NCBI RefSeq assembly: GCF_056712565.1
Contig: NZ_CM160072.1
Direction: 5' to 3' (one strand)
Length of the DNA: 64,000 nucleotides
The translations under genes were made by a program, and so were the position numbers. The notes beneath the pieces are model-generated. The model was not told where the DNA came from and did no database searches. It worked only from the letters and a program-made list of their open reading frames with translations. The stretch's first letter is position 1. Each line of letters begins with the position of its first letter. Shown here one piece after another: positions 3,316 to 59,071 of this stretch.

Positions 3316-4003
3316 TCGGAGCAAATTTTTGAATAACGTTGCTCAGGCACTGGGGCGCCCGCTGCGACTTGAACCGCAAGCAGAAGATGCGCCGCTTAAC
3401 AACTATGCTAACGAGCGGCTTACCCAACTTACCCAACAGCAGCGCTGTGACGCGTTTATCCAGTTTGCCAGCGATGTTATGTTGACGCGCTGTGAACTGA
3501 CCAGCGAGGCGAAGGCGGCAGAAGCTGCAATACGTCTGTGTAAAGAGCTGGGAGATCAGTCGGTCGTGATTAGTGGTGACACGAGGCTGGAGGAATTGGG
3601 GATTAGCGAACGTTTGCAGCAGGAATGCAATGCCGTTGTTTGGGATCCGGCGAAAGGTATTGAGAACATATCACAAGCAGAGCAGGCTAAAGTGGGCGTC
3701 GTATATGCTGAATATGGTTTAACCGAATCGGGAGGCGTGGTTCTTTTTTCCGCCGCCGGGCGCGGGCGTTCATTGAGCCTGCTCCCGGAATCTTCTCTTT
3801 TTATCCTGCGTAAAAGCACAATCCTGCCGCGTGTAGCGCAACTCGCAGAAAAATTGCATCAGAAAGCGCAGGCCGGTGAACGAATGCCGTCATGTATTAA
3901 CATCATCAGTGGTCCCAGTTCAACGGCGGACATTGAGCTTATCAAAGTCGTCGGGGTTCATGGTCCGGTGAAAGCGGTGTATCTGATTATTGAGGATTGC
4001 TGA
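3308..4003 (+). CDS. ykgG: LutC-like protein (YkgG)
   Basis: In-frame ATG at 3308 overlapping the ykgF stop gives 231 aa (MDNRSKF...), the expected size; the longer ORF from 3155 is an upstream extension inside ykgF. Confidence 0.85.
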   Translation: MDNRSKFLNNVAQALGRPLRLEPQAEDAPLNNYANERLTQLTQQQRCDAFIQFASDVMLTRCELTSEAKAAEAAIRLCKELGDQSVVISGDTRLEELGISERLQQECNAVVWDPAKGIENISQAEQAKVGVVYAEYGLTESGGVVLFSAAGRGRSLSLLPESSLFILRKSTILPRVAQLAEKLHQKAQAGERMPSCINIISGPSSTADIELIKVVGVHGPVKAVYLIIEDC

Positions 4004-4245: not shown

Positions 4246-4914
4246 TTACTGCCCAGAGTTTTGTTGGTATTCATCTACCATTTTTTTGACAAGGCAAAAC
4301 ATCACAGAAATCACAATACTTAGAAAAAATCCCAGAGCCAGGCAAATGGCAGCAGGGTATTTATTTTTTATTTCTGGTGAGCTTATAGTGACACAGCCAT
4401 CACCGTTCGGATACAGTGACCAGTTCCTGGTCAGGTATATCATTTTTGTATAAAGCTCACTGTTAATTGCTGAAGGCGTTTGTATCTCATCGAGAACTTG
4501 CCTGCCATTATGGTATTCTGACGCATACCATTTGATGATAGACGCCTGCACGCGAGATATTTCCGCTTCAGCAGTTGGTAAATCTCTCTTATTTCCTGAC
4601 CATTCCAGCTTTATTTCTCTGTTCTTGACATCTGGGCTGGTCTGAAAAAATGTAGTAATTCGCTGAATAACATCTTCAGTCATTGTGGTCTGACAGGCAA
4701 AGTTATTATTGCTATCACAGCTAACAAGTATGCCTGGTGTTGTCTGGTTTATTTTTAGACTGTAAGTCACTTTTATATTATCTTTATTGATATACAGAAA
4801 CAACAGCACCATTACCATACAGATAGCTATAATAAAAAGGATAACACGAATCTTTTTCTTCAGATAAAATAAAATCTCAATCAGATCGATATCCTGTTTG
4901 ATTTGTTCATTCAT
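4246..4914 (-). CDS. ykgH: Predicted inner-membrane protein YkgH
   Basis: 222-aa ORF with an N-terminal hydrophobic segment; position after ykgG matches K-12. Confidence 0.85.
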   Translation of the reverse strand: MNEQIKQDIDLIEILFYLKKKIRVILFIIAICMVMVLLFLYINKDNIKVTYSLKINQTTPGILVSCDSNNNFACQTTMTEDVIQRITTFFQTSPDVKNREIKLEWSGNKRDLPTAEAEISRVQASIIKWYASEYHNGRQVLDEIQTPSAINSELYTKMIYLTRNWSLYPNGDGCVTISSPEIKNKYPAAICLALGFFLSIVISVMFCLVKKMVDEYQQNSGQ

Positions 4915-5097
4915 AATATATCCAGAAAATGAAATCTGTCGCAGATAAGATTGTATTAATAGTCTGTATCAGGAATGTTCAGGGTAAATATCAGCAAAAA
5001 GCCAGCATCATGAATACTGGATATTTATAGCCTGCAGGCAGCATACTGCTGCCTGCAGGGGGTATAACAGTCGACAGGGGAACCGACTGCTTTATTC

Positions 5098-7395
5098 TTA
5101 CCAGGTCACATTGATACCAACTACACCCTGTAGCGGGTTCTCAATGTCGTCACCTTTGGTGTAGTCAAGGCTTGCATATGCTCCCATGTTTTTGGTGATA
5201 TCAGCCTGTACACCTGCACCCACGCGGAATGCTGCACCGTCAATGCTGGCATTGACAGACTCATCACCCAGACGGACTTTGTTGCCATCAGAGAATTCGT
5301 TCAGTGCGGCCAGATTCAGATAAGGTTTAACGGTCGCGTTGCCCACAGCGAAGTCATAACCCACGCGCGTACCGGCCTCACCCAGCACAGAGTTATAGCT
5401 GTCAGAATGAACGTCCACGCCGTTGAGTTGATAATCCACACCTTCCAGAGTCAGAGCAGACAGTTTGGCATATGGCTGAATAAACAGGCCATTACCGTCT
5501 TTCCATGTGTAACCGCCTTTAACCATCGCACCAAAACCATTGGTGTTAAAGTCAGCTTTGATGGTACCGCCACCATTCATCAGGCGAACATCTGCCGTGT
5601 TGCTGTAGTGACCAAACTGTGCAGCAGTATCAATGAAGATACCGTTGTTATACTGGCGGCTCAGGTAAGCGTGGAAGCTGTAACCTTCAGTGTCACCTTT
5701 GCTCTGCATGGTAGTCATGTCACCTTTCGCAGAAGACATCGCCACACCGGCCAGCCAGCTACCATCTTCAGTCATGAAGCGGGTATCACCACCCAGCATT
5801 ACACCATTTACATCCAGGTCATAGGATGCATTTCCCGCGGTGGTATGTTTCTGTTTACCGCCAAAGTACTGAATCCATACGCCACCCTTGTCATTTTCGC
5901 TCAGACGGACAGCATCCTGACGGGCGGAGAGCGTGTCAGCCTGCAGATTAGCGACGTTAGCCGGAGCAGCTGCCATTGCCTGAATCACGGAGCTGGCGTT
6001 GGATGCTTTATGCGTGTTTTTTACGAAATAAAAGTTACCATCAGCTCCCTGTGTCAGGTCATATTGATACAGACCACCTTCCGTTGTGCCTGTGGCTTTT
6101 AGAGTGCTGTCTTTGCCGGTAGAAATAAATGCCGTTTGTTCATTGATAAGATCCAATGAACCCGCACTGTAAACACGCAAGTCACCGCTCGCTTTACCGC
6201 TGATATCCAGAGTGTTTTCAGAAGAGGCATCAACAATCAGAGTGCCGTTTTGAGAAGCAAACGTGCCAGTATTGACTGTAGCCTTCGTGATATTAACCGT
6301 ACTGTCTTTTACTGCCAGAGCATCAACAGTTGAGGAACCCGTAACATTCCAGACAGACCCGTTTTGCAGAGATACACTGGCATCTCCTGCCCCTGAAACT
6401 TTGCCTTTCCAGACTGAACTATCGGAAAGATTTATATCCAGATCACTACCCGCTTTATCGCCGCTATTGAAGGTATAAGCATTACCTTCCCAGTAAGAGC
6501 GGGCAACGTTCATATTTACATTTGTTGTGGTACTGGCTGAATTCTCGCTTTCAGAAAGGGCCAGGACATCAGAGTAGATGGTTGAATCAGCAACAGACAA
6601 ATTTAAATTTTGCGTTGCTGAACCTGCGCCTTGTGCCGAAGCAGAGGCATAAATTGTTTGTTTATTATTAGCCGCCCCAATTACTGAGCCATCCTTAATA
6701 TTCAGGTTGACTGTATGAATTCCCGTCTTATTCCCGGCAGTAACTATTGTTTCAATCCCGCCATTAATAATATTTGAGTCAGCAAGGGTGATGTTGTCGG
6801 TTGCATCACCGTCAAAACCCTGCAACAAATTACCCTTTTGAGCAAAAATTGCCGTAGAGCCGTTGCTGTAACTCTTATTACCTTGAGCATTTATGGTTGT
6901 ACCATTGAGCGTTAAATTATTTCCCGTGGTCGCTTCCAGAGATATCCCTGTCGCACTACCTTTTTCATTTTTTGCAACGAAATTACCGCCATTAACAACA
7001 ACATCGCCAGTTGAATCAATGACCATTGCAGTCCGGACATAGGTGCCTTCACCTTGAGCTGTGATGGTGGAGTCTGTAGCATTAATCACAACATTTTTGT
7101 TACCACTAACTTTTACACCTTCAACGAAATCTTGGTTTACCGTTGATGCGGCGGTAATATCGTGACCGCCAAAAGTAACATTAAGGTCTTTATCTGAATC
7201 TGACGTTTCAATTGTTACGGCTGTAATCTTGTTATCACCGTTAATAACAACATCTTGATCCAGAGTCGTCTTCTCTGTATTCAGCGTAACCGGATCAGTT
7301 GATACCGTGCTATCAGTAGCGAATGCTGGTGCAGAAAGAGCCATAACAATAGCTGTCGCTAATGCGCTGCGGTAAAATGCCTTACTGTTTTTCAT
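5098..7395 (-). CDS. upaE: Type Va autotransporter: signal peptide, N/T/G/S-rich beta-helix-like passenger, C-terminal beta-barrel ending in W. Possibly UpaE
   Basis: Long ORF; start chosen at MKNSKAF (7395), which has a GGAG motif 9 nt upstream and a classical signal peptide; passenger is rich in short N/T/G repeats; C-terminal roughly 280 aa is barrel-like and ends GINVTW. Symbol by locus architecture from memory, not alignment. Confidence 0.7.
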   Translation of the reverse strand: MKNSKAFYRSALATAIVMALSAPAFATDSTVSTDPVTLNTEKTTLDQDVVINGDNKITAVTIETSDSDKDLNVTFGGHDITAASTVNQDFVEGVKVSGNKNVVINATDSTITAQGEGTYVRTAMVIDSTGDVVVNGGNFVAKNEKGSATGISLEATTGNNLTLNGTTINAQGNKSYSNGSTAIFAQKGNLLQGFDGDATDNITLADSNIINGGIETIVTAGNKTGIHTVNLNIKDGSVIGAANNKQTIYASASAQGAGSATQNLNLSVADSTIYSDVLALSESENSASTTTNVNMNVARSYWEGNAYTFNSGDKAGSDLDINLSDSSVWKGKVSGAGDASVSLQNGSVWNVTGSSTVDALAVKDSTVNITKATVNTGTFASQNGTLIVDASSENTLDISGKASGDLRVYSAGSLDLINEQTAFISTGKDSTLKATGTTEGGLYQYDLTQGADGNFYFVKNTHKASNASSVIQAMAAAPANVANLQADTLSARQDAVRLSENDKGGVWIQYFGGKQKHTTAGNASYDLDVNGVMLGGDTRFMTEDGSWLAGVAMSSAKGDMTTMQSKGDTEGYSFHAYLSRQYNNGIFIDTAAQFGHYSNTADVRLMNGGGTIKADFNTNGFGAMVKGGYTWKDGNGLFIQPYAKLSALTLEGVDYQLNGVDVHSDSYNSVLGEAGTRVGYDFAVGNATVKPYLNLAALNEFSDGNKVRLGDESVNASIDGAAFRVGAGVQADITKNMGAYASLDYTKGDDIENPLQGVVGINVTW

Positions 7396-7436
7396 GAAGA
7401 AATTCTCCATTCTGGTAACTAATTTCAATTTCCCAC

Positions 7437-8198
7437 TTATTTATATTTATGCAGAGATAAAGCCTGCGTCCCTGCATTTACCACCACGGAATACCTGTTG
7501 GTATTTCCGTTTTCACGCAATGTCATGGCATTCGTTGTTTCCAATGCATTTCCATCACCGTGAAAATTATTGCTGCTCAGCAGCAGGGCTTCCCGCAATG
7601 ACATGCTGTCCGGTATTCCCCAACGCTTTTTTAGCGACTGCTCGGCAAGCCATATCTGTCTTATCCCCGTTTTGAGAAACTGCGCACTGTATTCCCAGCT
7701 GTGTCCGGCAAGAAGTAACGACAACACCTTCTTTTGCTTTTCCGGGAAGCGTTCTGACATGACGATTGTCTTTGTGCGGTTATTCACCTCTTTCATAAAG
7801 ACAGAGTAACTGTCCATAACTGGCAAAATTTCTGCATGCTTCAGCCCTGAAAACCCACCAGAGGCATTTGCAATACTGATGACACGCTCTACTGACATTC
7901 CTGGTTTCAGTAACCTCAGGTTTTTGAGAACGCCAGAAATACTCACATCCGGTGGCAGAAAAAAGGGCGTGACGCACAACACCACCACGAATGAGTGATC
8001 CCGATAAAATCGGAACCACATTTCAGCGCATTCGGCAGGTCGCCCTGCCGATATCACGACACTCTGTGGCCTGTGCCGCAATTTATTGCGTAACTCCTCT
8101 TCTGTTCTGATGCAGGTAACATTGCCGACAGAACCGGTTGATAGAGCTGCGAACTGCGCTGGTACAATTCCTGAGGGACAGAAAAGAACGAAACGCAT
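7437..8198 (-). CDS. Hypothetical regulator with a degenerate LuxR/GerE-type HTH region
   Basis: 253-aa ORF directly upstream of the autotransporter (8-bp gap); segment LSLLLAGHSWEYSAQFLKTGIRQIWLAEQSLKKRWGI loosely resembles a LuxR HTH. Confidence 0.5.
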   Translation of the reverse strand: MRFVLFCPSGIVPAQFAALSTGSVGNVTCIRTEEELRNKLRHRPQSVVISAGRPAECAEMWFRFYRDHSFVVVLCVTPFFLPPDVSISGVLKNLRLLKPGMSVERVISIANASGGFSGLKHAEILPVMDSYSVFMKEVNNRTKTIVMSERFPEKQKKVLSLLLAGHSWEYSAQFLKTGIRQIWLAEQSLKKRWGIPDSMSLREALLLSSNNFHGDGNALETTNAMTLRENGNTNRYSVVVNAGTQALSLHKYK

Positions 8199-8351
8199 CC
8201 TTCCCTCACAGATGTCAGTACGCCAGCACGCTGTACAGGCTGTACAGCGTGCCTCCCAATCCTGCAGCCCAGAACAGTAGAAATATTTTGGCTCCTACAC
8301 TGTAGCGAGTCCGTATGCGCCGCAGTGGGTGGTAGTAACAACGCTGCTGTG

Positions 8352-9146
8352 TCATAACAATCCTGGTCTTTTTTTAGATATATTTTTTCTTTGTCCGGAA
8401 AGTACTTTTCCGGAAATGGCGTCAGAATTTATTGATTCACCAACGGCAACTTTCTCTGGATAAAGGATTCCGGATACCATGTTCTGCACATACTGAGTGA
8501 GTCGATGAGCGGAATGTTGTCCGATATATTTTGCATGTAGCCGTATATTCCGTTTCACTCTGCTGTCACCGCATCCCGTATAGAGCAGCCTGAAATCGCT
8601 CAGTGTTCCCAGTCCAAGTTTCATTAAAGCCCGTGTGGCAATCGCATGCAGGGTCTTTGAACTGCGTTGTTCATAACGGGCAATCTCACTGAAACTCATG
8701 CCCTGCATCAGAATCTTAAGCACGCTCAACTCCCGTGCAGTCAGGAGCCAGAAATCGCTCATATCGCCGGGCAAAGGACGTAGTAACCAGCGGATAATTT
8801 GATTCTGATAACGACTCGCTGTCAGCATGGTGCCGATGCGTGGGAAGCCGTTATACAGACTTGCAGCAGGAGCATTATCGAACCAGTCGGAGTCACCGGT
8901 CAGGCAGACCTGCCATTGCCCGGCATCACTCCGCAAACGGGCGAGACAAGCCAGAAGAACCAACTCCCCCGAAGGAAGCGAAGGGATATCAGCTAACAGG
9001 TAGCCACAGGAGGTCTTTAAAACGAATTCAACCTCTGTAGTGACGTTGCTGTACACCCGCACGATATACCTGTCCGTTGGGATGAGAGACTCCAGTGCCA
9101 GCCTGGTGAACTGACAGGCACTGATAATAACCAGAGGCTTCTTCAT
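8352..9146 (-). CDS. ipuR: LuxR/GerE-family transcriptional regulator, possibly IpuR
   Basis: 264-aa ORF; clear LuxR-type HTH (LTARELSVLKILMQGMSFSEIARYEQRSSKTLHAIATRALMKLGL); first gene downstream of the candidate invertible element. Symbol by architecture only. Confidence 0.65.
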   Translation of the reverse strand: MKKPLVIISACQFTRLALESLIPTDRYIVRVYSNVTTEVEFVLKTSCGYLLADIPSLPSGELVLLACLARLRSDAGQWQVCLTGDSDWFDNAPAASLYNGFPRIGTMLTASRYQNQIIRWLLRPLPGDMSDFWLLTARELSVLKILMQGMSFSEIARYEQRSSKTLHAIATRALMKLGLGTLSDFRLLYTGCGDSRVKRNIRLHAKYIGQHSAHRLTQYVQNMVSGILYPEKVAVGESINSDAISGKVLSGQRKNISKKRPGLL

Positions 9147-9172
9147 TCAGACTCGTCCACGCCATTGCTACA

Positions 9173-9465
9173 AAACCTGACATTTTGATTCAAAATGTCA
9201 GGTTTGGTTTAATAGCCTGAATATTTAATTTTCTTGGAATATAAATCTGATTTGTTTGATTTTTATTGTTTTTAATTTTGTATTATTTAACAATATGGGC
9301 GAAAGTTAATCACTGGTATGACCTTTGTGATTAATCATTTCAAATCATGGGGTTATTTTACTTTAGCTAGAAATATCAACATGTTATGTGTTTTATTTAA
9401 TTGAATGGGCTGTTTTTTTATGGAAGAATTGAGGAAAACGTAGGAATCTGACATTTTGAATCAGA
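9173..9465. promoter_or_regulatory. Candidate invertible promoter switch: 12-bp perfect inverted repeats (tcaaaatgtcag at 9190-9201, ctgacattttga at 9448-9459) flank a 246-bp AT-rich segment; a 33-bp perfect palindrome spans 9173-9205
   Basis: Repeats read directly from the sequence; element sits between the recombinase stop (9476) and the LuxR gene start (9146), the same layout as fimE-fimS-fimA. Confidence 0.6.
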
Positions 9466-9475
9466 AGGTACTGTT

Positions 9476-10039
9476 TTAACGAGGCTTTTTTTTCCACACC
9501 CCTTTAAAACGAGCAGCATTACTGGCTGTGTATCTGACAGTATGCTGAATATTTCGATGACCCAGGTAATCCTGAAGTAGTCGGGTATCGACACCATTGT
9601 CAGCCAGAGCAAAACCACAGGCATGACGTAACATATGAGGATGTGCTTTTACAGCTAATCCTGCACGTTTTCCAGCCTCACGAATGATAGAAAAAAAATG
9701 TTGTCTGCTGATAGGGCGGCGTTTCCGGGAGAGAAAAAGCCAGTCTCCTTCAACTCCGTTTTCAATTAACTTCCTCTGCTTAAGCCACAACTTGATCAAA
9801 TTATATTCATCAGGAAGAAGAGGATGTGTTGTCGAGAAACCATTTTTAATACGCCGAATATTAAGTTGTTTTCCAGATGCATCAATATCGGATAAACGTA
9901 AATCAAGAAGTTCACTGGCCCTAAAACCGTGAATGAAAGCCATCATAATCAGACAGCGATTTCTTTCAGGAAAGGACATGCTCTGGGCTGCATCCATCAG
10001 CCTGTAGACTTCATCCTGTGTGAGATATTTTCTCGTCAT
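9476..10039 (-). CDS. ipuA: FimB/FimE-family tyrosine site-specific recombinase, possibly IpuA
   Basis: About 187-200 aa with FimB-like motifs (HGFRASE, GFSTTHPLL, HPHMLRH, CGFALA, DTRLLQDYLGHRNIQHTVRYTASNA); no fimbrial genes adjacent. ATG at 10039 preferred; alternative GTG at 10078. Confidence 0.8.
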   Translation of the reverse strand: MTRKYLTQDEVYRLMDAAQSMSFPERNRCLIMMAFIHGFRASELLDLRLSDIDASGKQLNIRRIKNGFSTTHPLLPDEYNLIKLWLKQRKLIENGVEGDWLFLSRKRRPISRQHFFSIIREAGKRAGLAVKAHPHMLRHACGFALADNGVDTRLLQDYLGHRNIQHTVRYTASNAARFKGVWKKKPR

Positions 10040-11108
10040 ACGCCACCGTGTACAGTTGTAAAAAAAAGAGAGGCACACCCAGATAAGTATGCCTGCAATC
10101 AGAACGTTATCGATGTAATCTCATTATCTCATTAATAAGATTTTTTGAATAGTAGTTCTACGCAACAGATTAAATATGAACTATTTATTGTGCAGCTTTT
10201 CTACAAGTCATTTTTAATGCGTGTTTTTATCTACTATAATGTGAAAAAAATAAATATTAAAACTATGAGTGACAGGTCGTGTGGGATGTGTATTACGTCT
10301 AATGCTTTAGTAATTTTTTATTATTTCTGAGATATTTAACATCATTTCCTGTGAGATTGTCTTGTTGTGTATCTAATTGATTTTAATTTTGTTTTTTTTG
10401 ATGCATAAATTTGGATGATAGAAAGTAAGATTAGCTTAATATCAATGATATGAATTTATAAATACATATTGTTGCAAGGTGTTCTTTACTTTTTTGGTCG
10501 TTAGTAAATCATTGTTAATGGGTTCTGTTCATAAATTAAAAATATTCATTTAAATGATTTTTACTTTTTGTATATCTCAATTTGTTTATTTTGCATTCAT
10601 TTGATGGAGAGTATTCCAACACTTTTTATTTTTCGCAAAAAACTTATTAACAACTTTTTATTATCAATTGAAAATTAATGTAAACTAAAATGTTAGCGAA
10701 GCGATAATCTTGTGCTAAAAAATATTTAAGCATGATGATTAATTAAAGAAGAGTAAAAATAAATCGCTGCTAATAAATTATACGAACCGTGTTTAAAGCT
10801 CCATGTGGTTTTGGTCTGACTTATTTTTGTACTCGTTACAAGAACCCTTTTCGTACATGCTAACCGTGAGCGGGAATGAACAGGTAACCATAGCCAGGAA
10901 CATTAGCGGCGTAATTCTTAAGCTGAGTGGTATTTCATCTGTAGTTTATCTGTGTATGCATAGCACCTTCATCAGCCAGATTGAGCAAGTCAGCTTAGAA
11001 TTTGCTGGTGAGATTGTCACGATGAAGCATGAGAGTTACCTCAGTGTTTTATATAAGGATTCGGTCCTCATAGTAGAACGGTAACTCTCAATCTGATAGG
11101 TTCCTGAG

Positions 11109-41854: not shown

Positions 41855-43741
41855 ATGTCTTTTAGCGAATTTTATCAGCGTTCGATTAACGAACCGGAGC
41901 AGTTCTGGGCCGAGCAGGCCCGGCGTATTGACTGGCAGACGCCCTTTACGCAAACGCTCGACCACAGCAACCCGCCGTTTGCCCGTTGGTTTTGTGAAGG
42001 CCGAACCAACTTGTGTCACAACGCTATCGATCGCTGGCTGGAGAAACAGCCAGAGGCGCTGGCATTGATTGCCGTCTCTTCGGAAACAGAGGAAGAGCGT
42101 ACCTTTACCTTTCGTCAGCTGCATGACGAAGTGAACGCGGTGGCCTCAATGTTGCGTTCATTGGGGGTGCAGCGTGGCGATCGGGTGCTGGTGTATATGC
42201 CGATGATTGCCGAAGCGCATATTACTCTGCTGGCCTGCGCGCGTATTGGCGCTATTCACTCGGTGGTGTTTGGTGGATTTGCCTCGCACAGCGTGGCGGC
42301 GCGAATTGATGATGCTAAACCGGTGCTGATTGTCTCGGCTGATGCCGGAGCGCGCGGTGGCAAAATCATTCCCTATAAAAAATTACTCGACGATGCGATA
42401 AGTCAGGCGCAGCATCAGCCGCGCCACGTTTTACTGGTGGATCGCGGACTGGCGAAAATGGCGCGCGTCAGCGGGCGGGATGTCGATTTCGCGTCGTTGC
42501 GCCATCAACACATCGGTGCGCGGGTGCCGGTGGCGTGGCTGGAATCCAACGAAACCTCCTGCATTCTCTACACCTCCGGCACGACCGGCAAACCTAAAGG
42601 TGTGCAGCGTGATGTCGGCGGATATGCGGTGGCGCTGGCGACCTCGATGGACACCATTTTTGGCGGCAAAGCGGGCGGCGTGTTCTTTTGTGCTTCGGAT
42701 ATCGGCTGGGTGGTAGGGCATTCGTATATCGTTTACGCGCCGCTGCTGGCGGGGATGGCGACTATCGTTTACGAAGGATTGCCGACCTGGCCGGACTGCG
42801 GCGTGTGGTGGAAAATTGTCGAGAAATATCAGGTTAGCCGCATGTTCTCAGCGCCGACCGCCATTCGCGTGCTGAAAAAATTCCCTACCGCTGAAATTCG
42901 CAAACACGATCTTTCGTCGCTGGAAGTGCTCTATCTGGCTGGAGAACCGCTGGATGAGCCGACCGCCAGTTGGGTGAGCAATACGCTGGATGTGCCGGTC
43001 ATCGACAACTACTGGCAGACCGAATCCGGCTGGCCGATTATGGCGATTGCTCGCGGTCTGGATGACAGGCCGACGCGTCTGGGAAGCCCCGGCGTGCCGA
43101 TGTATGGCTATAACGTGCAGTTGCTCAATGAAGTCACCGGCGAACCGTGTGGCGTCAATGAGAAAGGGATGCTGGTAGTGGAGGGGCCATTGCCGCCAGG
43201 CTGTATTCAGACCATCTGGGGCGACGACGACCGCTTTGTGAAGACGTACTGGTCGCTGTTTTCCCGTCCGGTGTACGCCACTTTTGACTGGGGCATCCGC
43301 GATGCTGACGGTTATCACTTTATTCTCGGGCGCACTGACGATGTGATTAACGTTGCCGGACATCGGCTGGGTACGCGTGAGATTGAAGAGAGTATCTCCA
43401 GTCATCCGGGCGTTGCCGAAGTGGCGGTGGTTGGGGTGAAAGATGCGCTGAAAGGGCAGGTGGCGGTGGCGTTTGTCATTCCGAAAGAGAGCGACAGTCT
43501 GGAAGACCGTGAGGTGGCGCACTTGCAAGAGAAGGCAATTATGGCGCTGGTAGACAGCCAGATTGGCAACTTTGGCCGCCCGGCGCACGTCTGGTTTGTC
43601 TCGCAATTGCCAAAAACGCGATCCGGAAAAATGCTGCGCCGCACGATCCAGGCGATTTGCGAAGGACGCGATCCTGGGGATCTGACGACCATTGATGATC
43701 CGGCGTCGTTGGATCAGATCCGCCAGGCGATGGAAGAGTAG
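41855..43741 (+). CDS. prpE: Propionyl-CoA synthetase PrpE
   Basis: 628 aa acyl-CoA synthetase with AMP-binding motif YTSGTTGKPKG. Confidence 0.95.
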   Translation: MSFSEFYQRSINEPEQFWAEQARRIDWQTPFTQTLDHSNPPFARWFCEGRTNLCHNAIDRWLEKQPEALALIAVSSETEEERTFTFRQLHDEVNAVASMLRSLGVQRGDRVLVYMPMIAEAHITLLACARIGAIHSVVFGGFASHSVAARIDDAKPVLIVSADAGARGGKIIPYKKLLDDAISQAQHQPRHVLLVDRGLAKMARVSGRDVDFASLRHQHIGARVPVAWLESNETSCILYTSGTTGKPKGVQRDVGGYAVALATSMDTIFGGKAGGVFFCASDIGWVVGHSYIVYAPLLAGMATIVYEGLPTWPDCGVWWKIVEKYQVSRMFSAPTAIRVLKKFPTAEIRKHDLSSLEVLYLAGEPLDEPTASWVSNTLDVPVIDNYWQTESGWPIMAIARGLDDRPTRLGSPGVPMYGYNVQLLNEVTGEPCGVNEKGMLVVEGPLPPGCIQTIWGDDDRFVKTYWSLFSRPVYATFDWGIRDADGYHFILGRTDDVINVAGHRLGTREIEESISSHPGVAEVAVVGVKDALKGQVAVAFVIPKESDSLEDREVAHLQEKAIMALVDSQIGNFGRPAHVWFVSQLPKTRSGKMLRRTIQAICEGRDPGDLTTIDDPASLDQIRQAMEE

Positions 43742-43914
43742 GTCGGATAAGGCGCTCGCGCCGCATCCGACACCGTGCGCAGATGCCTGATGCGACGCTG
43801 ACGCGTCTTATCATGCCTACAGGCCTGAACCGTAGGTCGGATAAGGCGCTCGCGCCGCATCCGACACCATGCGCAGATGCCTGATGCGACGCTGACGCGT
43901 CTTATCATGCCTAC
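43738..43914. repeat. Two tandem ~83-bp REP-containing units (BIME-like) after prpE
   Basis: Near-identical units at 43738-43820 and 43832-43914, each built from inverted REP motifs. Confidence 0.85.
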
Positions 43915-45325: not shown

Positions 45326-46598
45326 TGCTTTACAAACAATTATTAACGCCCAGTTACCCGGCAAAGAGGGGCTGTGGCAGATTCATCTTCACGACGGAAA
45401 AATCAGCGCCATTGATGCGCAATCCGGGGTGATGCCCGTAACTGAAAACAGCCTGGATGCCGAACAAGGTTTAGTTTTACCGCCGTTTGTGGAGCCGCAT
45501 ATTCACCTGGACACCACGCAAACCGCCGGACAACCGAACTGGAATCAGTCCGGCACGCTGTTTGAAGGCATTGAACGCTGGGCCGAGCGCAAAGCGTTAT
45601 TAACTCATGACGATGTGAAACAACGCGCATGGCAAACGCTGAAATGGCAGATTGCCAACGGCATTCAGCATGTGCGTACCCATGTCGATGTCTCCGACGC
45701 AACGCTGACTGCGTTGAAAGCGATGCTGGAAGTGAAACAGGAAGTTGCGCCGTGGATTGATCTGCAAATCGTCGCCTTCCCGCAGGAAGGGATTTTGTCG
45801 TATCCCAACGGTGAAGCGTTGCTGGAAGAGGCGCTACGCTTAGGGGCAGATGTTGTTGGGGCGATTCCGCATTTTGAATTTACCCGTGAATACGGCGTGG
45901 AGTCGCTGCATAAAACCTTCGCCCTGGCGCAAAAATACGACCGTCTCATCGACGTTCACTGTGATGAGATCGATGACGAGCAGTCGCGCTTTGTCGAAAC
46001 CGTTGCTGCCCTGGCGCACCGTGAAGGCATGGGCGCGCGAGTCACCGCTAGCCATACTACGGCAATGCACTCCTATAACGGGGCGTATACTTCGCGCCTG
46101 TTCCGTTTGCTGAAAATGTCCGGTATTAACTTTGTCGCCAACCCGTTGGTCAATATTCATCTGCAAGGACGTTTCGATACGTATCCAAAACGTCGCGGCA
46201 TCACGCGCGTTAAAGAGATGCTGGAGTCCGGCATTAACGTCTGCTTTGGTCACGATGATGTCTTCGATCCGTGGTATCCGCTGGGAACGGCGAATATGCT
46301 GCAAGTGCTGCATATGGGGCTGCATGTTTGCCAGCTGATGGGCTACGGGCAGATTAACGACGGCCTGAATTTAATCACCCACCACAGCGCCAGGACGTTG
46401 AATTTGCAGGATTACGGCATTGCCGCCGGAAACAGCGCCAACCTGATTATCCTGCCGGCTGAAAATGGGTTTGATGCGCTGCGCCGTCAGGTTCCGGTAC
46501 GTTATTCGGTACGTGGCGGCAAGGTGATTGCCAGCACACAACCGGCACAAACCACCGTATATCTGGAGCAGCCAGAAGCCATCGATTACAAACGGTAA
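45315..46598 (+). CDS. codA: Cytosine deaminase CodA
   Basis: 427 aa from a GTG start (MSNNALQ) overlapping the codB 3' end; amidohydrolase HxH motif. Confidence 0.95.
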
Positions 46599-46627
46599 TC
46601 GGCTGGGTTACCGCGAGCGTAGTTTAT

Positions 46628-46705
46628 GCCGGATGCGGCGTGAACACCTTATCCGGCCTACGTAGATCTCTGAAATTGTAGGCCTGATAAGCGGAGCGCA
46701 TCAGG
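46628..46705. repeat. REP elements in the codA-lacA gap
   Basis: gccggatgcggcgtgaacaccttatccggcctac and inverted tgtaggcctgataagcggagcgcatcaggc. Confidence 0.8.
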
Positions 46706-46718
46706 CAATTTTGCTTAT

Positions 46719-47330
46719 TTAAACTGAAGACTCAACTTTAAAATCTTTGAAATAATATTGCTTATCCCGGTCGTTTATTTCGCGAATAACCCGACAAGGA
46801 ACGCCAGCAGCCACGACGTTTGGTGGAATGTCTTTTGTGACGACACTACCCGCGCCAATAACAGAATTATCCCCGATGGTGACGCCTGGATTAATAACCA
46901 CATGACTTCCGATCCAGACGTTATTGCCAATCGTTATCGGAAAAGAGTACATCTCTCCGTTTTTTCTCAATTCATGGTGTACCGGGTGTCCCGTAACGGA
47001 AAGAGTAACGTTGGGTGCAATCAGTACGTTATCACCGATCGTTACCGTGTAGTCGTCGACAATGGTTAAATTGAAATTTGCATAAAAATTGCGGCCTATA
47101 TAGATGTTGGAACCGTAAGAGAAATAGACGGGGGGTTCTACCCAGGCGTTTTCCCCTACCGTGGCAAACATTTCTTTAATCAGACTTTCTCTTTTATCAA
47201 CTTCTGATGGATGCGAGTGATTAAACTCATACATTAACGTTTTTCCACGAAGTCTTTTTTCAGGTAAGCCTTCGCACATATCGGTAAATAGCTTGCCTGC
47301 TTTTATTCTTTCTGTCATCGACATGTTCAT
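46719..47330 (-). CDS. lacA: Galactoside O-acetyltransferase LacA
   Basis: 203 aa from MNMSMTERIKAGK; hexapeptide-repeat acetyltransferase. Confidence 0.95.
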   Translation of the reverse strand: MNMSMTERIKAGKLFTDMCEGLPEKRLRGKTLMYEFNHSHPSEVDKRESLIKEMFATVGENAWVEPPVYFSYGSNIYIGRNFYANFNLTIVDDYTVTIGDNVLIAPNVTLSVTGHPVHHELRKNGEMYSFPITIGNNVWIGSHVVINPGVTIGDNSVIGAGSVVTKDIPPNVVAAGVPCRVIREINDRDKQYYFKDFKVESSV

Positions 47331-47339
47331 TGCGATCAT

Positions 47340-47395
47340 TCCGCCCTGATATGTTGGTCGGATAAGGCGCTCGCGCCGCATCCGACATTGATTGC
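47340..47395. repeat. REP element between lacA and lacY
   Basis: ggtcggataaggcgctcgcgccgcatccgac motif; its translation explains the spurious MRRERLIRPT N-terminal extension of the lacA ORF. Confidence 0.75.
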
Positions 47396-48694
<1,299 letters not shown>

Positions 48695-48700
48695 TTATTA

Positions 48701-51813
<3,113 letters not shown>

Positions 51814-51819
51814 TCACAC

Positions 51820-51849
51820 AACATACGAGCCGGACACATAGAGTGTAAA
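51820..51849 (-). promoter_or_regulatory. lac promoter (-35 TTTACA, 18-bp spacer, -10 TATGTT)
   Basis: Reverse complement reads tttacactctatgtgtccggctcgtatgtt immediately upstream of O1. Confidence 0.85.
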
Positions 51850-51862
51850 GACTGGGGTGCCT

Positions 51863-51884
51863 AATGAGTGAGCTGACTCACATT
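51863..51884 (-). promoter_or_regulatory. CRP (CAP) binding site of the lac promoter
   Basis: aatgtgagtcagctcactcatt palindrome (TGTGA ... TCACT). Confidence 0.8.
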
Positions 51885-51905
51885 AATTGTGTTGCGCTCA
51901 CTGCC
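51885..51905 (-). promoter_or_regulatory. lac auxiliary operator O3
   Basis: ggcagtgagcgcaacacaatt overlapping the lacI 3' end. Confidence 0.7.
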
Positions 51906-52980
51906 CGCTTTCCAGTCGGGAAACTTGTCGTGCCAGCTGCATTAATGAATCGGCCAACGCGCGGGGAGAGGCGGTTTGCGTATTGGGCGGAAGGGTGGTT
52001 TTTCTTTTCACCAGTGAGACGGGCAACAGCTGATTGCCCTTCACCGCCTGGCCCTGAGAGAGTTGCAGCAAGCGGTCCACGCTGGTTTGCCCCAGCAGGC
52101 GAAAATCCTGTTTGATGGTGGTTAACGGCGGGATATAACACGAGCTGTCTTCGGTATCGTCGTATCCCACTACCGAGATATCCGCACCAACGCGCAGCCC
52201 GGACTCGGTAATGGCGCGCATTGCGCCCAGCGCCATCTGATCGTTGGCAACCAGCATCGCAGTGGGAACGATGCCCTCATTTAGCATTTGCATGGTTTGT
52301 TGAAAACCGGACATGGCACTCCAGTCGCCTTCCCGTTCCGCTATCGGCTGAATTTGATTGCGTGTGAGATATTTATGCCAGCCTGCCAGACGCAGACGCG
52401 CCGAGACAGAACTTAATGGGCCTGCTAACAGCGCGATTTGCTGGTGACCCAATGCGACCAGGTGCTCCACGCCCAGTCGCGTACCGTCTTCATGGGAGAA
52501 AATAATACTGTTGATGGGAGTCTGGTCAGAGACATCAAGAAATAACGCCGGAACATTAGCGCAGGCAGCTTCCACAGCAATGGCATCCTGGTCATCCAGC
52601 GGATAGTTAATGATCAGCCCACTGACGCGTTGCGCGAGAAGATTGTGCACCGCCGCTTTACAGGCTTCGACGCCGCTTCGTTCTACCATCGACACCACCA
52701 CGCTGGCACCCAGTTGATCGGCGCGAGATTTTATCGCCGCAACAATTTGCGACGGCGCGTGCAGGGCCAGACTGGAGGTGGCAACGCCAATCAGCAACGA
52801 CTGTTTGCCCGCCAGTTGTTGTGCCACGCGGTTGGGAATGTAATTCAGCTCCGCCATCGCCGCTTCCACTTTTTCCCGCGTTTTCGCAGAAACGTGGCAG
52901 GCCTGGTTCACCACGCGGGAAACGGTCTGATAAGAGACACCGGCATACTCTGCGACATCGTATAGCGTTACTGGTTTCAC
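51898..52980 (-). CDS. lacI: Lactose repressor LacI
   Basis: 360 aa from the classic GTG start (GTGAAACCAGTAACG, MKPVTLYDVAEYAGVSYQTVSRVV). Confidence 0.97.
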   Translation of the reverse strand: MKPVTLYDVAEYAGVSYQTVSRVVNQACHVSAKTREKVEAAMAELNYIPNRVAQQLAGKQSLLIGVATSSLALHAPSQIVAAIKSRADQLGASVVVSMVERSGVEACKAAVHNLLAQRVSGLIINYPLDDQDAIAVEAACANVPALFLDVSDQTPINSIIFSHEDGTRLGVEHLVALGHQQIALLAGPLSSVSARLRLAGWHKYLTRNQIQPIAEREGDWSAMSGFQQTMQMLNEGIVPTAMLVANDQMALGAMRAITESGLRVGADISVVGYDDTEDSSCYIPPLTTIKQDFRLLGQTSVDRLLQLSQGQAVKGNQLLPVSLVKRKTTLPPNTQTASPRALADSLMQLARQVSRLESGQ

Positions 52981-53181
52981 ATTCACCACCCTGAATTGAC
53001 TCTCTTCCGGGCGCTATCATGCCATACCGCGAAAGGTTTTGCGCCATTCGGCGAGGCTGACGCCGAAGTGAGATTTAAAATGCTGACGCCAGGTCACAGG
53101 TGAGAGAAAACCCACGCCAATACACCTACGGCGTTTACAGGTATACTCGCTAAAAATTATTCAGCGGGTTTGGAAACAAAG

Positions 53182-53721
53182 ATGGCAAAACTTACCTTAC
53201 AAGAGCAGTTGCTCAAAGCGGGACTAGTCACCAGCAAAAAAGCGGCGAAGGTGGAGAGAACGGCGAAAAAATCGCGCGTTCAGGCGCGTGAAGCTCGGGC
53301 TGCGGTAGAAGAAAATAAAAAGGCACAGCTTGAGCGTGATAAACAGCTTAGCGAACAGCAAAAACAAGCGGCGTTGGCGAAAGAATATAAAGCCCAGGTG
53401 AAGCAGCTCATTGAAATGAACCGAATCACCATTGCCAATGGCGATATTGGTTTTAACTTCACTGACGGCAATCTGATTAAGAAGATTTTTGTCGATAAGC
53501 TCACACAGGCGCAGTTGATTAATGGTCGTCTGGCGATTGCTCGCTTGTTGGTCGATAACAATAGCGAAGGTGAATACGCCATTATTCCCGCCAGCGTTGC
53601 CGATAAAATTGCTCAGCGTGATGCCAGCAGTATTGTGTTGCACAGCGCGCTCAGCGCCGAAGAGCAGGATGAAGACGATCCGTATGCCGACTTCAAAGTG
53701 CCTGATGATTTGATGTGGTAA
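53182..53721 (+). CDS. yaiL: DUF2058-family protein YaiL
   Basis: 179 aa from MAKLTLQEQLLKAG; lysine- and alanine-rich N-terminal half. Confidence 0.85.
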   Translation: MAKLTLQEQLLKAGLVTSKKAAKVERTAKKSRVQAREARAAVEENKKAQLERDKQLSEQQKQAALAKEYKAQVKQLIEMNRITIANGDIGFNFTDGNLIKKIFVDKLTQAQLINGRLAIARLLVDNNSEGEYAIIPASVADKIAQRDASSIVLHSALSAEEQDEDDPYADFKVPDDLMW

Positions 53722-57948: not shown

Positions 57949-59071
57949 AAATAATCCAGATGGCATAAGCTAATAATACATACACAACGGAAAGCGGTGC
58001 TAAAGGCACCAACAACCAGCAACGATGAAACCAGGCGCTAAATGCACCAATAACACAAACTACGCCGACCCAGATAAGCGGGAACATTGCCAACACCACA
58101 CCATGTGGCCCGGTGGTGATGAATTCATTAAACCAGGTAGTGAGATAAATACCAACGCCATAAAGCACAACCAACAGCATAGGAAATATACTGAAGATAC
58201 CGAAGCGGCTAAATAAAAGTCTTTTATGCAGGCGCATACAGACCGCGTAGCCCACAATCCAACGCCGCCAGCGGCGCCACTCCTCACGCGGACTGTTACA
58301 TTCCTGTGGGTATACGATGCAGCGATTCGCCTGCCGAATACGGTAGCCGTTTGCCACCAATGTCCAGGTGAGATCAAGGTCTTCGACTTTAGTACGATCC
58401 GAGAAACCGAACTTACGCAATACATCAGTACGGAACATCCCGCAGGCACCGCTGATGATAAACGGTGCGCCGCCCAGAAGCTGCTGTAGCGTGCGCTTCA
58501 TAACAATCATCGGCAACTTTACGGTCGCGCGGATGTGTAGCTGCTGTAGCGTGCGCTTCATAACAATCATCGGCAACTTTACGGTCGCGCGGATGTGTGG
58601 TAACAGACCCGCGCCTTTCAACGCAGTAGAGGGAATGCCGCCTACGGCATCAGCGCCACGCTCAATTTCCGCCAGCATATAGCCCATTCCGTCTTGATCG
58701 GGCGGAACATAGGTGTCGGCATCACTTAAAAAAACCTGATCGCAGGTGGCGTAATTGAGGCCATTCATCAGCGCACCACCTTTACCGGTATTTTTTTGCG
58801 TGACGGCAACAAAGCGGTCGCCCCATTTGCGTTTGACTTCCGCCATGACCGCTTCGGTATTGTCCATGGAGCCGTCGTTAACGCAAATTACCCGGCAAAA
58901 ATAAGGGTTACGCAGCAGATTATCCAGTGACTGCGCCAGACACGGGCCTTCGTTATAAGCAGGTATAATGGCGTCAATACAGCCTTTCTTTTGGCTGGGC
59001 TTACGCCTTAACGTACTCAGAAACCATAGCAATATTGCTACGGCCATACATATAAAGATCCAGGTTTTCAT
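57815..59071 (-). CDS. yaiP: Family-2 glycosyltransferase YaiP, carrying an in-frame 20-aa tandem duplication
   Basis: 418 aa (398 expected without the duplication); glycosyltransferase-like N-terminus, C-terminal membrane segments. Confidence 0.85.
   Translation of the reverse strand: MKTWIFICMAVAILLWFLSTLRRKPSQKKGCIDAIIPAYNEGPCLAQSLDNLLRNPYFCRVICVNDGSMDNTEAVMAEVKRKWGDRFVAVTQKNTGKGGALMNGLNYATCDQVFLSDADTYVPPDQDGMGYMLAEIERGADAVGGIPSTALKGAGLLPHIRATVKLPMIVMKRTLQQLHIRATVKLPMIVMKRTLQQLLGGAPFIISGACGMFRTDVLRKFGFSDRTKVEDLDLTWTLVANGYRIRQANRCIVYPQECNSPREEWRRWRRWIVGYAVCMRLHKRLLFSRFGIFSIFPMLLVVLYGVGIYLTTWFNEFITTGPHGVVLAMFPLIWVGVVCVIGAFSAWFHRCWLLVPLAPLSVVYVLLAYAIWIIYGLIAFFTGREPQRDKPTRYSALVEVSTAYSHPSVTGTEKLSEA
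58481..58600. repeat. Tandem duplication of a 60-bp unit (units differ at 1 position) inside yaiP
   Basis: ctgctgtagcgtgcgcttcataacaatcatcggcaactttacggtcgcgcggatgtgt occurs twice consecutively. Confidence 0.9.

Follow-up and report, generated by a model that had tools for sequence, protein, structure and literature searches.

The recombinase gene that we have studied is best explained as fimX (also named ipbA and hbiF), the accessory Fim-family tyrosine recombinase of Escherichia coli PAI-X, together with its adjoining switch, hyxS. We give this reading a probability of roughly 95%, and we found no evidence that contradicts it. The window (the whole stretch of 64,000 nucleotides that was analysed) carries the FimX/IpbA/HbiF-hyxS-hyxRAB locus of PAI-X, which is already known: it has been described since 2006-2012 and is named in RefSeq. 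An earlier note, made from the sequence alone, called the gene an orphan. It had missed hyxS, which lies immediately downstream of the gene, and the label was mistaken because this cognate element begins 12 nt past the fimX stop codon and is present in both orientations in nature. The features of the locus are collected in Table 1.

Table 1. Features of the fimX-hyxS locus and its island, in coordinates of the window
Feature	Position	Strand	Description and source
PAI-X island	5025..11021		Insertion; limits from a blastn comparison of K-12 ykgH-betA DNA with the window
hyxB (= upaB)	5098..7395	-	Outer-membrane autotransporter adhesin; RefSeq; TIGR01414 beta-barrel, 4.2e-69
hyxA	7437..8198	-	RefSeq; according to the literature, affects O-antigen chain length and serum resistance
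hyxR	8352..9146	-	LuxR/GerE-family regulator; RefSeq; Pfam GerE, 3.9e-06 (helix-turn-helix)
Palindrome CTGACATTTTGA-T-TCAAAATGTCAG	9177..9201		Perfect, 25 bp; inner arm is the hyxR-proximal repeat
hyxS	9186..9463		Invertible element of 278 bp between fimX and hyxR; perfect 16-bp inverted repeats
hyxR-proximal inverted repeat, TGATTCAAAATGTCAG	9186..9201		Perfect, 16 bp; 39 nt upstream of the hyxR start codon
fimX-proximal inverted repeat, CTGACATTTTGAATCA	9448..9463		Perfect, 16 bp; 12 nt downstream of the fimX stop codon
fimX (= ipbA = hbiF)	9476..10039	-	FimB/FimE-type tyrosine DNA invertase, 187 aa; RefSeq CDS WP_001295805.1
A8 homopolymer (T8 on the + strand)	9486..9493	-	In the last fimX codons; A7 and A9 alleles in public data
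Terminator-like hairpin and T8 run	10061..10094	-	Consensus scan; ends about 20 nt upstream of ATG 10039

Identity of the gene and of its island

Over the segment 8300-10400, the window shares 100% identity with E. coli APEC O1, with UTI89 and with many more extraintestinal pathogenic strains, and the APEC O1 and UTI89 records annotate this segment as hyxR and ipbA. On a larger scale, positions 1301-64000 of the window are about 99.98% identical to APEC O1. The RefSeq CDS has the product name tyrosine-type DNA invertase IpbA and carries the note 'IpbA is also known as HbiF and FimX'; its accession denotes the same protein in UTI89 and EC958. An exact-sequence look-up found both the 187-aa and the 200-aa protein in public clusters named IpbA, FimX or FimB, among whose members are the original CFT073, UTI89 and APEC O1 entries. 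The earlier note had listed IpbA and FimX among the proteins with which to align the gene, whereas, by the RefSeq note, the gene is itself IpbA, FimX and HbiF. When set beside the FimX/hyxS-hyxR locus of PAI-X in UTI89, CFT073, RS218 and EC958, the window has the same DNA (over 8300-10400), the same protein accession, the same gene order and the same 16-bp repeats. We found no substantive difference between them, and the window represents another ExPEC/APEC genome with hyxS in the majority (reference) orientation.

The genomic setting is that of PAI-X. Homology to K-12 ends at 5024 and restarts at 11022, at adjacent K-12 bases; ykgH and betA are thus separated by 6.0 kb of inserted DNA, whose G+C content is 43%, as compared to 51% for the window. 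Between these two genes the order is hyxB-hyxA-hyxR-hyxS-fimX, with all genes on the same strand and gaps of 153 nt (hyxR-hyxA) and 41 nt (hyxA-hyxB). PAI-X as published consists of fimX and hyxRAB, and both its defining content (fimX-hyxR-hyxA-hyxB) and its site (ykgH/betA) are found in the window; the island also occupies the same ykgH-betA site in every locus that we retrieved. The neighbours of fimX, a LuxR-type regulator and an autotransporter, are as the earlier note had described them, and its observation that an adjacent fimbrial operon is absent extends to the whole 64-kb window, where we found none. For hyxA, no family was found in Pfam or NCBIfam.

Catalytic domain and start codon of fimX

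The open reading frame at 9476-10078 on the minus strand was confirmed, and comprises 200 aa when counted from the GTG. Its product contains the complete Pfam domain Phage_integrase (PF00589; E 5.4e-50, model positions 1-171 of 172) and exceeds the curated cut-off of the NCBIfam model NF007370, 'tyrosine-type DNA invertase' (251.7 bits against a cut-off of 221), as well as that of NF007371 (232.9 bits against 222), while it falls far under the cut-offs of the XerC, XerD and integron integrase models. Alignment to the E. coli K-12 proteins gave 53% identity to FimB and 52% to FimE, which belong to the same length class. With PF00589, the NF007370 score and these identities, the proposed assignment to the FimB/FimE family was right.

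Alignment was also used to look for the R-H-R-Y tetrad, and all of its residues are present. R53, H148, R151, H174 and Y183 (200-aa numbering) are invariant with respect to FimB and FimE; in the 187-aa numbering, which we use hereafter, they are R40, H135, R138, H161 and Y170. These positions match R47, H141, R144 and Y176 of FimB, and the catalytic R, HxxR, H and Y of a solved XerA recombinase structure align with the same FimX residues. K65 is probably an additional catalytic residue. The protein consists of the short catalytic domain alone, whether 187 or 200 aa long, and the N-terminal core-binding domain is absent. Judged by its sequence, FimX is a tyrosine recombinase of a single domain, intact and with a complete set of catalytic residues.

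The ambiguity of the start codon, which had been pointed out before, is real, with the 200-aa GTG form in old GenBank records and the 187-aa ATG form in RefSeq. We favour ATG 10039 as the better start on several grounds: it is the start chosen by RefSeq; MTRKYLT is the N-terminus of every PGAP-annotated fimX allele; the N-terminus of FimE aligns at this position; GGTGG stands immediately 5' of the codon; and GTG 10078, which would add 13 aa, sits in the 3' arm of the terminator-like hairpin that precedes the T8 run. The 200-aa form persists in old GenBank annotations only, and GTG 10078 was judged the less likely start. The hairpin itself is part of the minimum-free-energy fold, but its z-score is just -1.3, which is statistically not unusual; with this qualification, it may act as a leader or attenuator, or as insulation from betA read-through. 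It borders a gene-free stretch of about 940 bp with 30% G+C (10079-11021), which forms the betA-side end of the island.

The hyxS switch and its orientations

The gap between fimX and hyxR measures 329 bp and houses hyxS, whose interior between the repeats spans 246 bp at 27% G+C. The repeat motif occurs three times in 64 kb, the third copy overlapping the hyxR-proximal one. This third copy is the outer arm (9177-9192) of the palindrome, and it is direct to 9448-9463 with one mismatch, at the central base.

hyxS exists naturally in both orientations, with junctions exactly at the repeats. We searched complete E. coli genomes with a query in which 9186-9463 had been reverse-complemented in silico, and counted as a match an alignment of at least 80% of the query length. 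Among 1891 genomes with the locus, 1780 have the orientation of the window and 16 its exact inversion. The loci of APEC O18 and Eco_24-2013 match the window perfectly as far as the end of one repeat; the match breaks off there and is taken up again exactly at the other repeat, the interior being inverted.

Some of the loci with the minority orientation have altered recombinase genes. In Eco_24-2013 (positions 4477-7115 of its retrieved locus, L004), an IS66-family element leaves the last 114 nt of fimX beside the inverted switch, and because of this truncation hyxS would be permanently locked in the minority orientation. Four further strains listed with inverted hyxS have a match that is cut at the same point as in Eco_24-2013 and the same 'DNA recombinase' annotation, and their recombinase gene appears truncated. 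APEC O18 combines the inverted hyxS with an extra C beside the T8 run (about position 3485 of its locus, L003), which shifts the frame of fimX; the CDS is annotated there as 612 nt, running into hyxS.

According to published descriptions, hyxS has 16-bp repeats and carries the hyxR promoter, and its orientation controls hyxR. A consensus scan for sigma-70 promoters returned three promoter-like sites, against 5.3 expected from shuffles, and a weight-matrix scan gave weak and similar scores on both strands of hyxS. Neither scan revealed a convincing promoter on either strand of the element, nor did they allow ON or OFF to be assigned to an orientation. The orientation in the window is probably the OFF state, since the UTI89 reference and 99% of assemblies share it, and since FimX overexpression yields the non-reference orientation.

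Loss of hyxS and variant ends of fimX

About 90 of the 1891 PAI-X E. coli genomes have no hyxS, in that 1891 possess its flanks and 1801 its interior. This count is the difference between flank-bearing and interior-bearing genomes, complemented by single-piece matches to a model of the deletion; junction queries of 76 nt and 380 nt at a cover of at least 80% were uninformative, as the flanks of intact loci were merged into one match. The deletion joins 9177-9192, the direct copy of the repeat, to 9448-9463, and the model matches single uninterrupted stretches in many genomes. In the four hyxS-less loci examined, hyxR and an intact fimX lie 58 bp apart. The crossover site at the palindrome is symmetric save for its central base, which is T at the hyxR-proximal end and A at the fimX-proximal site; at the deletion junction this base is A in FDAARGOS_1304 and clone D i14, and T in BCE049 and 13P477T. 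The deletions are found on at least three island haplotypes, with identities to the window of about 99.9%, 99.7/98.2% and 97/88-97%, which argues that the loss of hyxS is recurrent.

We tentatively suggest that FimX may pair its sites in 'direct' as well as in 'inverted' alignment, and occasionally excise the 271-bp switch irreversibly. Excision by FimX would explain the roughly 90 precise losses, their presence on at least three haplotypes and the existence of both A and T junctions, as mixed junctions are expected from heteroduplex in the crossover region. Replication slippage between 12-bp direct repeats is an alternative that would also explain the losses. If excision by FimX does take place, a switch that had been reversible would give way to a state of hyxR that is fixed for good. 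We found no mention of a precise deletion or excision of hyxS in the open-access papers, and both this loss and the homopolymer alleles of fimX may be unreported.

These homopolymer alleles concern the A8 tract. Removing one A in silico (A7) gives a protein of 206 aa, the reading frame of which runs across the repeat into hyxS, and the tail is identical to that of a common public variant (P0018, on 578 contigs). When hyxS is inverted in silico in the A7 background, the tail is altered and the protein has 205 aa; when hyxS is deleted, the product is the 199-aa public variant P0020. A tract of nine (A9) corresponds to the 215-aa variant P0024, in which the frame is also shifted across the repeat into hyxS. 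The tails in the database were reproduced exactly by in silico translation. As predicted from these translations, the C-terminal tail of FimX in A7 and A9 alleles depends on the state of hyxS, whether in the window's orientation, inverted or deleted.

Other features of the window

Outside the island, three regions deserve mention. Compared with APEC O1, a 60-bp sequence is perfectly duplicated in tandem at 58479-58598, as two in-frame copies inside the gene annotated in that strain as the glycosyltransferase yaiP. Two stretches of 83 bp within 43738-43914, about 94 bp apart, match each other with 98.8% identity, which points to direct repeats; by APEC O1 coordinates, their place is the 3' end of prpE and the DNA right after it, towards codB. 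Finally, at about 46000-53200, lacA directly follows codA in the APEC O1 annotation, and a remnant of a GlxA-family regulator lies beside lacI; the cyn and mhp operons of the K-12 map would therefore be absent here.

Discussion

The function of fimX has been addressed in several strains. [quoted passage not shown] Recombinase-dependent inversion of hyxS and fimS has been reported for the identical UTI89 protein and for the CFT073 gene, and ST131 strains have been reported to have functional FimX. Whole-genome sequencing after FimX overexpression revealed inversion only at fimS and hyxS, and at ipuS in CFT073. Downstream of the switch, HyxR is described as a repressor of the response to nitrosative stress (hmpA); it makes the bacteria less tolerant of reactive nitrogen species and influences survival in macrophages. 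In hyxR and hyxA mutants, both the chain length of the O-antigen and the resistance to serum are changed, and a hyxR 'invertase inversion' has been selected under phage pressure, yielding clones that were transiently phage-resistant. Later papers describe a hyxRAB operon preceded by a promoter that FimX flips.

In this light, the suggestion in the earlier note that the recombinase acts in trans on the type 1 fimbrial switch was correct, and is documented for this very gene. Its further proposal, a coupling of the neighbouring regulator and autotransporter to fimbrial phase variation, is for the regulator essentially the published model, in which FimX flips both the hyxR/hyxRAB promoter and fimS. 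The part that concerns the autotransporter goes further: from their order on the same strand and from the later papers, we infer that hyxA and hyxB/upaB are probably co-regulated with hyxR as a hyxRAB operon. Mechanistically, FimX would bind half-sites in and around the repeats and then pair two sites, and strand exchange would proceed within the repeats via Tyr170 and a Holliday intermediate.

Several known systems resemble this locus. In the FimB/FimE-fimS system of K-12, an enzyme of the same family is likewise encoded beside an invertible promoter, of about 300 bp; however, the repeats of fimS are 9 bp long and unrelated in sequence, and that switch serves a fimbrial operon, whereas hyxS has 16-bp repeats and serves a LuxR-type regulator. 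In addition, according to the literature, FimB and FimE do not flip hyxS, while FimX flips both switches. The same layout is found for IpuA/IpuB-ipuS-ipuR-upaE in a PAI of CFT073, with a Fim-like recombinase, an invertible promoter, a LuxR-type regulator and an autotransporter. One ipuS repeat lies inside the recombinase ORF, and inversion alters the C-terminus of the ipuA product, in the same way as we predict for the A7 alleles of fimX. The ipu system differs by its 7-bp repeats, its two recombinases and its chromosomal site, and it is absent from this window. In Salmonella, the STM0716/T1-antigen switch is reported to comprise a FimX ortholog (72% identity), an upstream switch with identical repeat sequence and a HyxA-like gene downstream, but it controls a surface polysaccharide gene cluster rather than an autotransporter.

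Other readings of the gene have to be weighed against its identification as fimX with hyxS. That it would be an orphan recombinase without a nearby cognate site, acting solely in trans on a distant fimS, is suggested by the lack of fim genes in the 64-kb window and by the documented action on fimS; the perfect 16-bp repeat element next to its stop codon, natural in both orientations and equivalent to the published FimX-specific hyxS, makes this very unlikely. Decay of the gene in this strain, with a frozen switch, is more improbable still. Truncated alleles do occur elsewhere, including a 96-aa form in O157:H7 and the form disrupted by IS66, and the window has the majority orientation only, but its allele is full length, has all catalytic residues and encodes the same protein as UTI89 and EC958; published work shows the UTI89 fimX to be active and reports the FimX of ST131 strains as functional.

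The Phage_integrase superfamily and the low G+C of the insertion relative to K-12 could also point to an integrase that mobilises the 6-kb PAI-X instead of a promoter invertase. We hold this to be scarcely credible in view of a product that consists of the catalytic domain only, passes the DNA-invertase cut-off and remains far under those of the Xer and integrase models, of the genome sequencing after FimX overexpression, in which rearrangement was seen at known switches only, and of an island found at one ykgH-betA site in all retrieved loci. The island-integrase and pseudogene readings were accordingly rejected on the subfamily scores, the full-length allele and the catalytic residues.

In conclusion, our results place in another genome a locus that, in extraintestinal pathogenic E. 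coli, links phase variation of the type 1 pilus to a regulator of O-antigen length, serum resistance and tolerance to nitrosative stress. In addition, the loss of hyxS, the locked switches beside IS-disrupted fimX and the homopolymer fusions offer leads on the decay and fixation of such a switch in natural populations.
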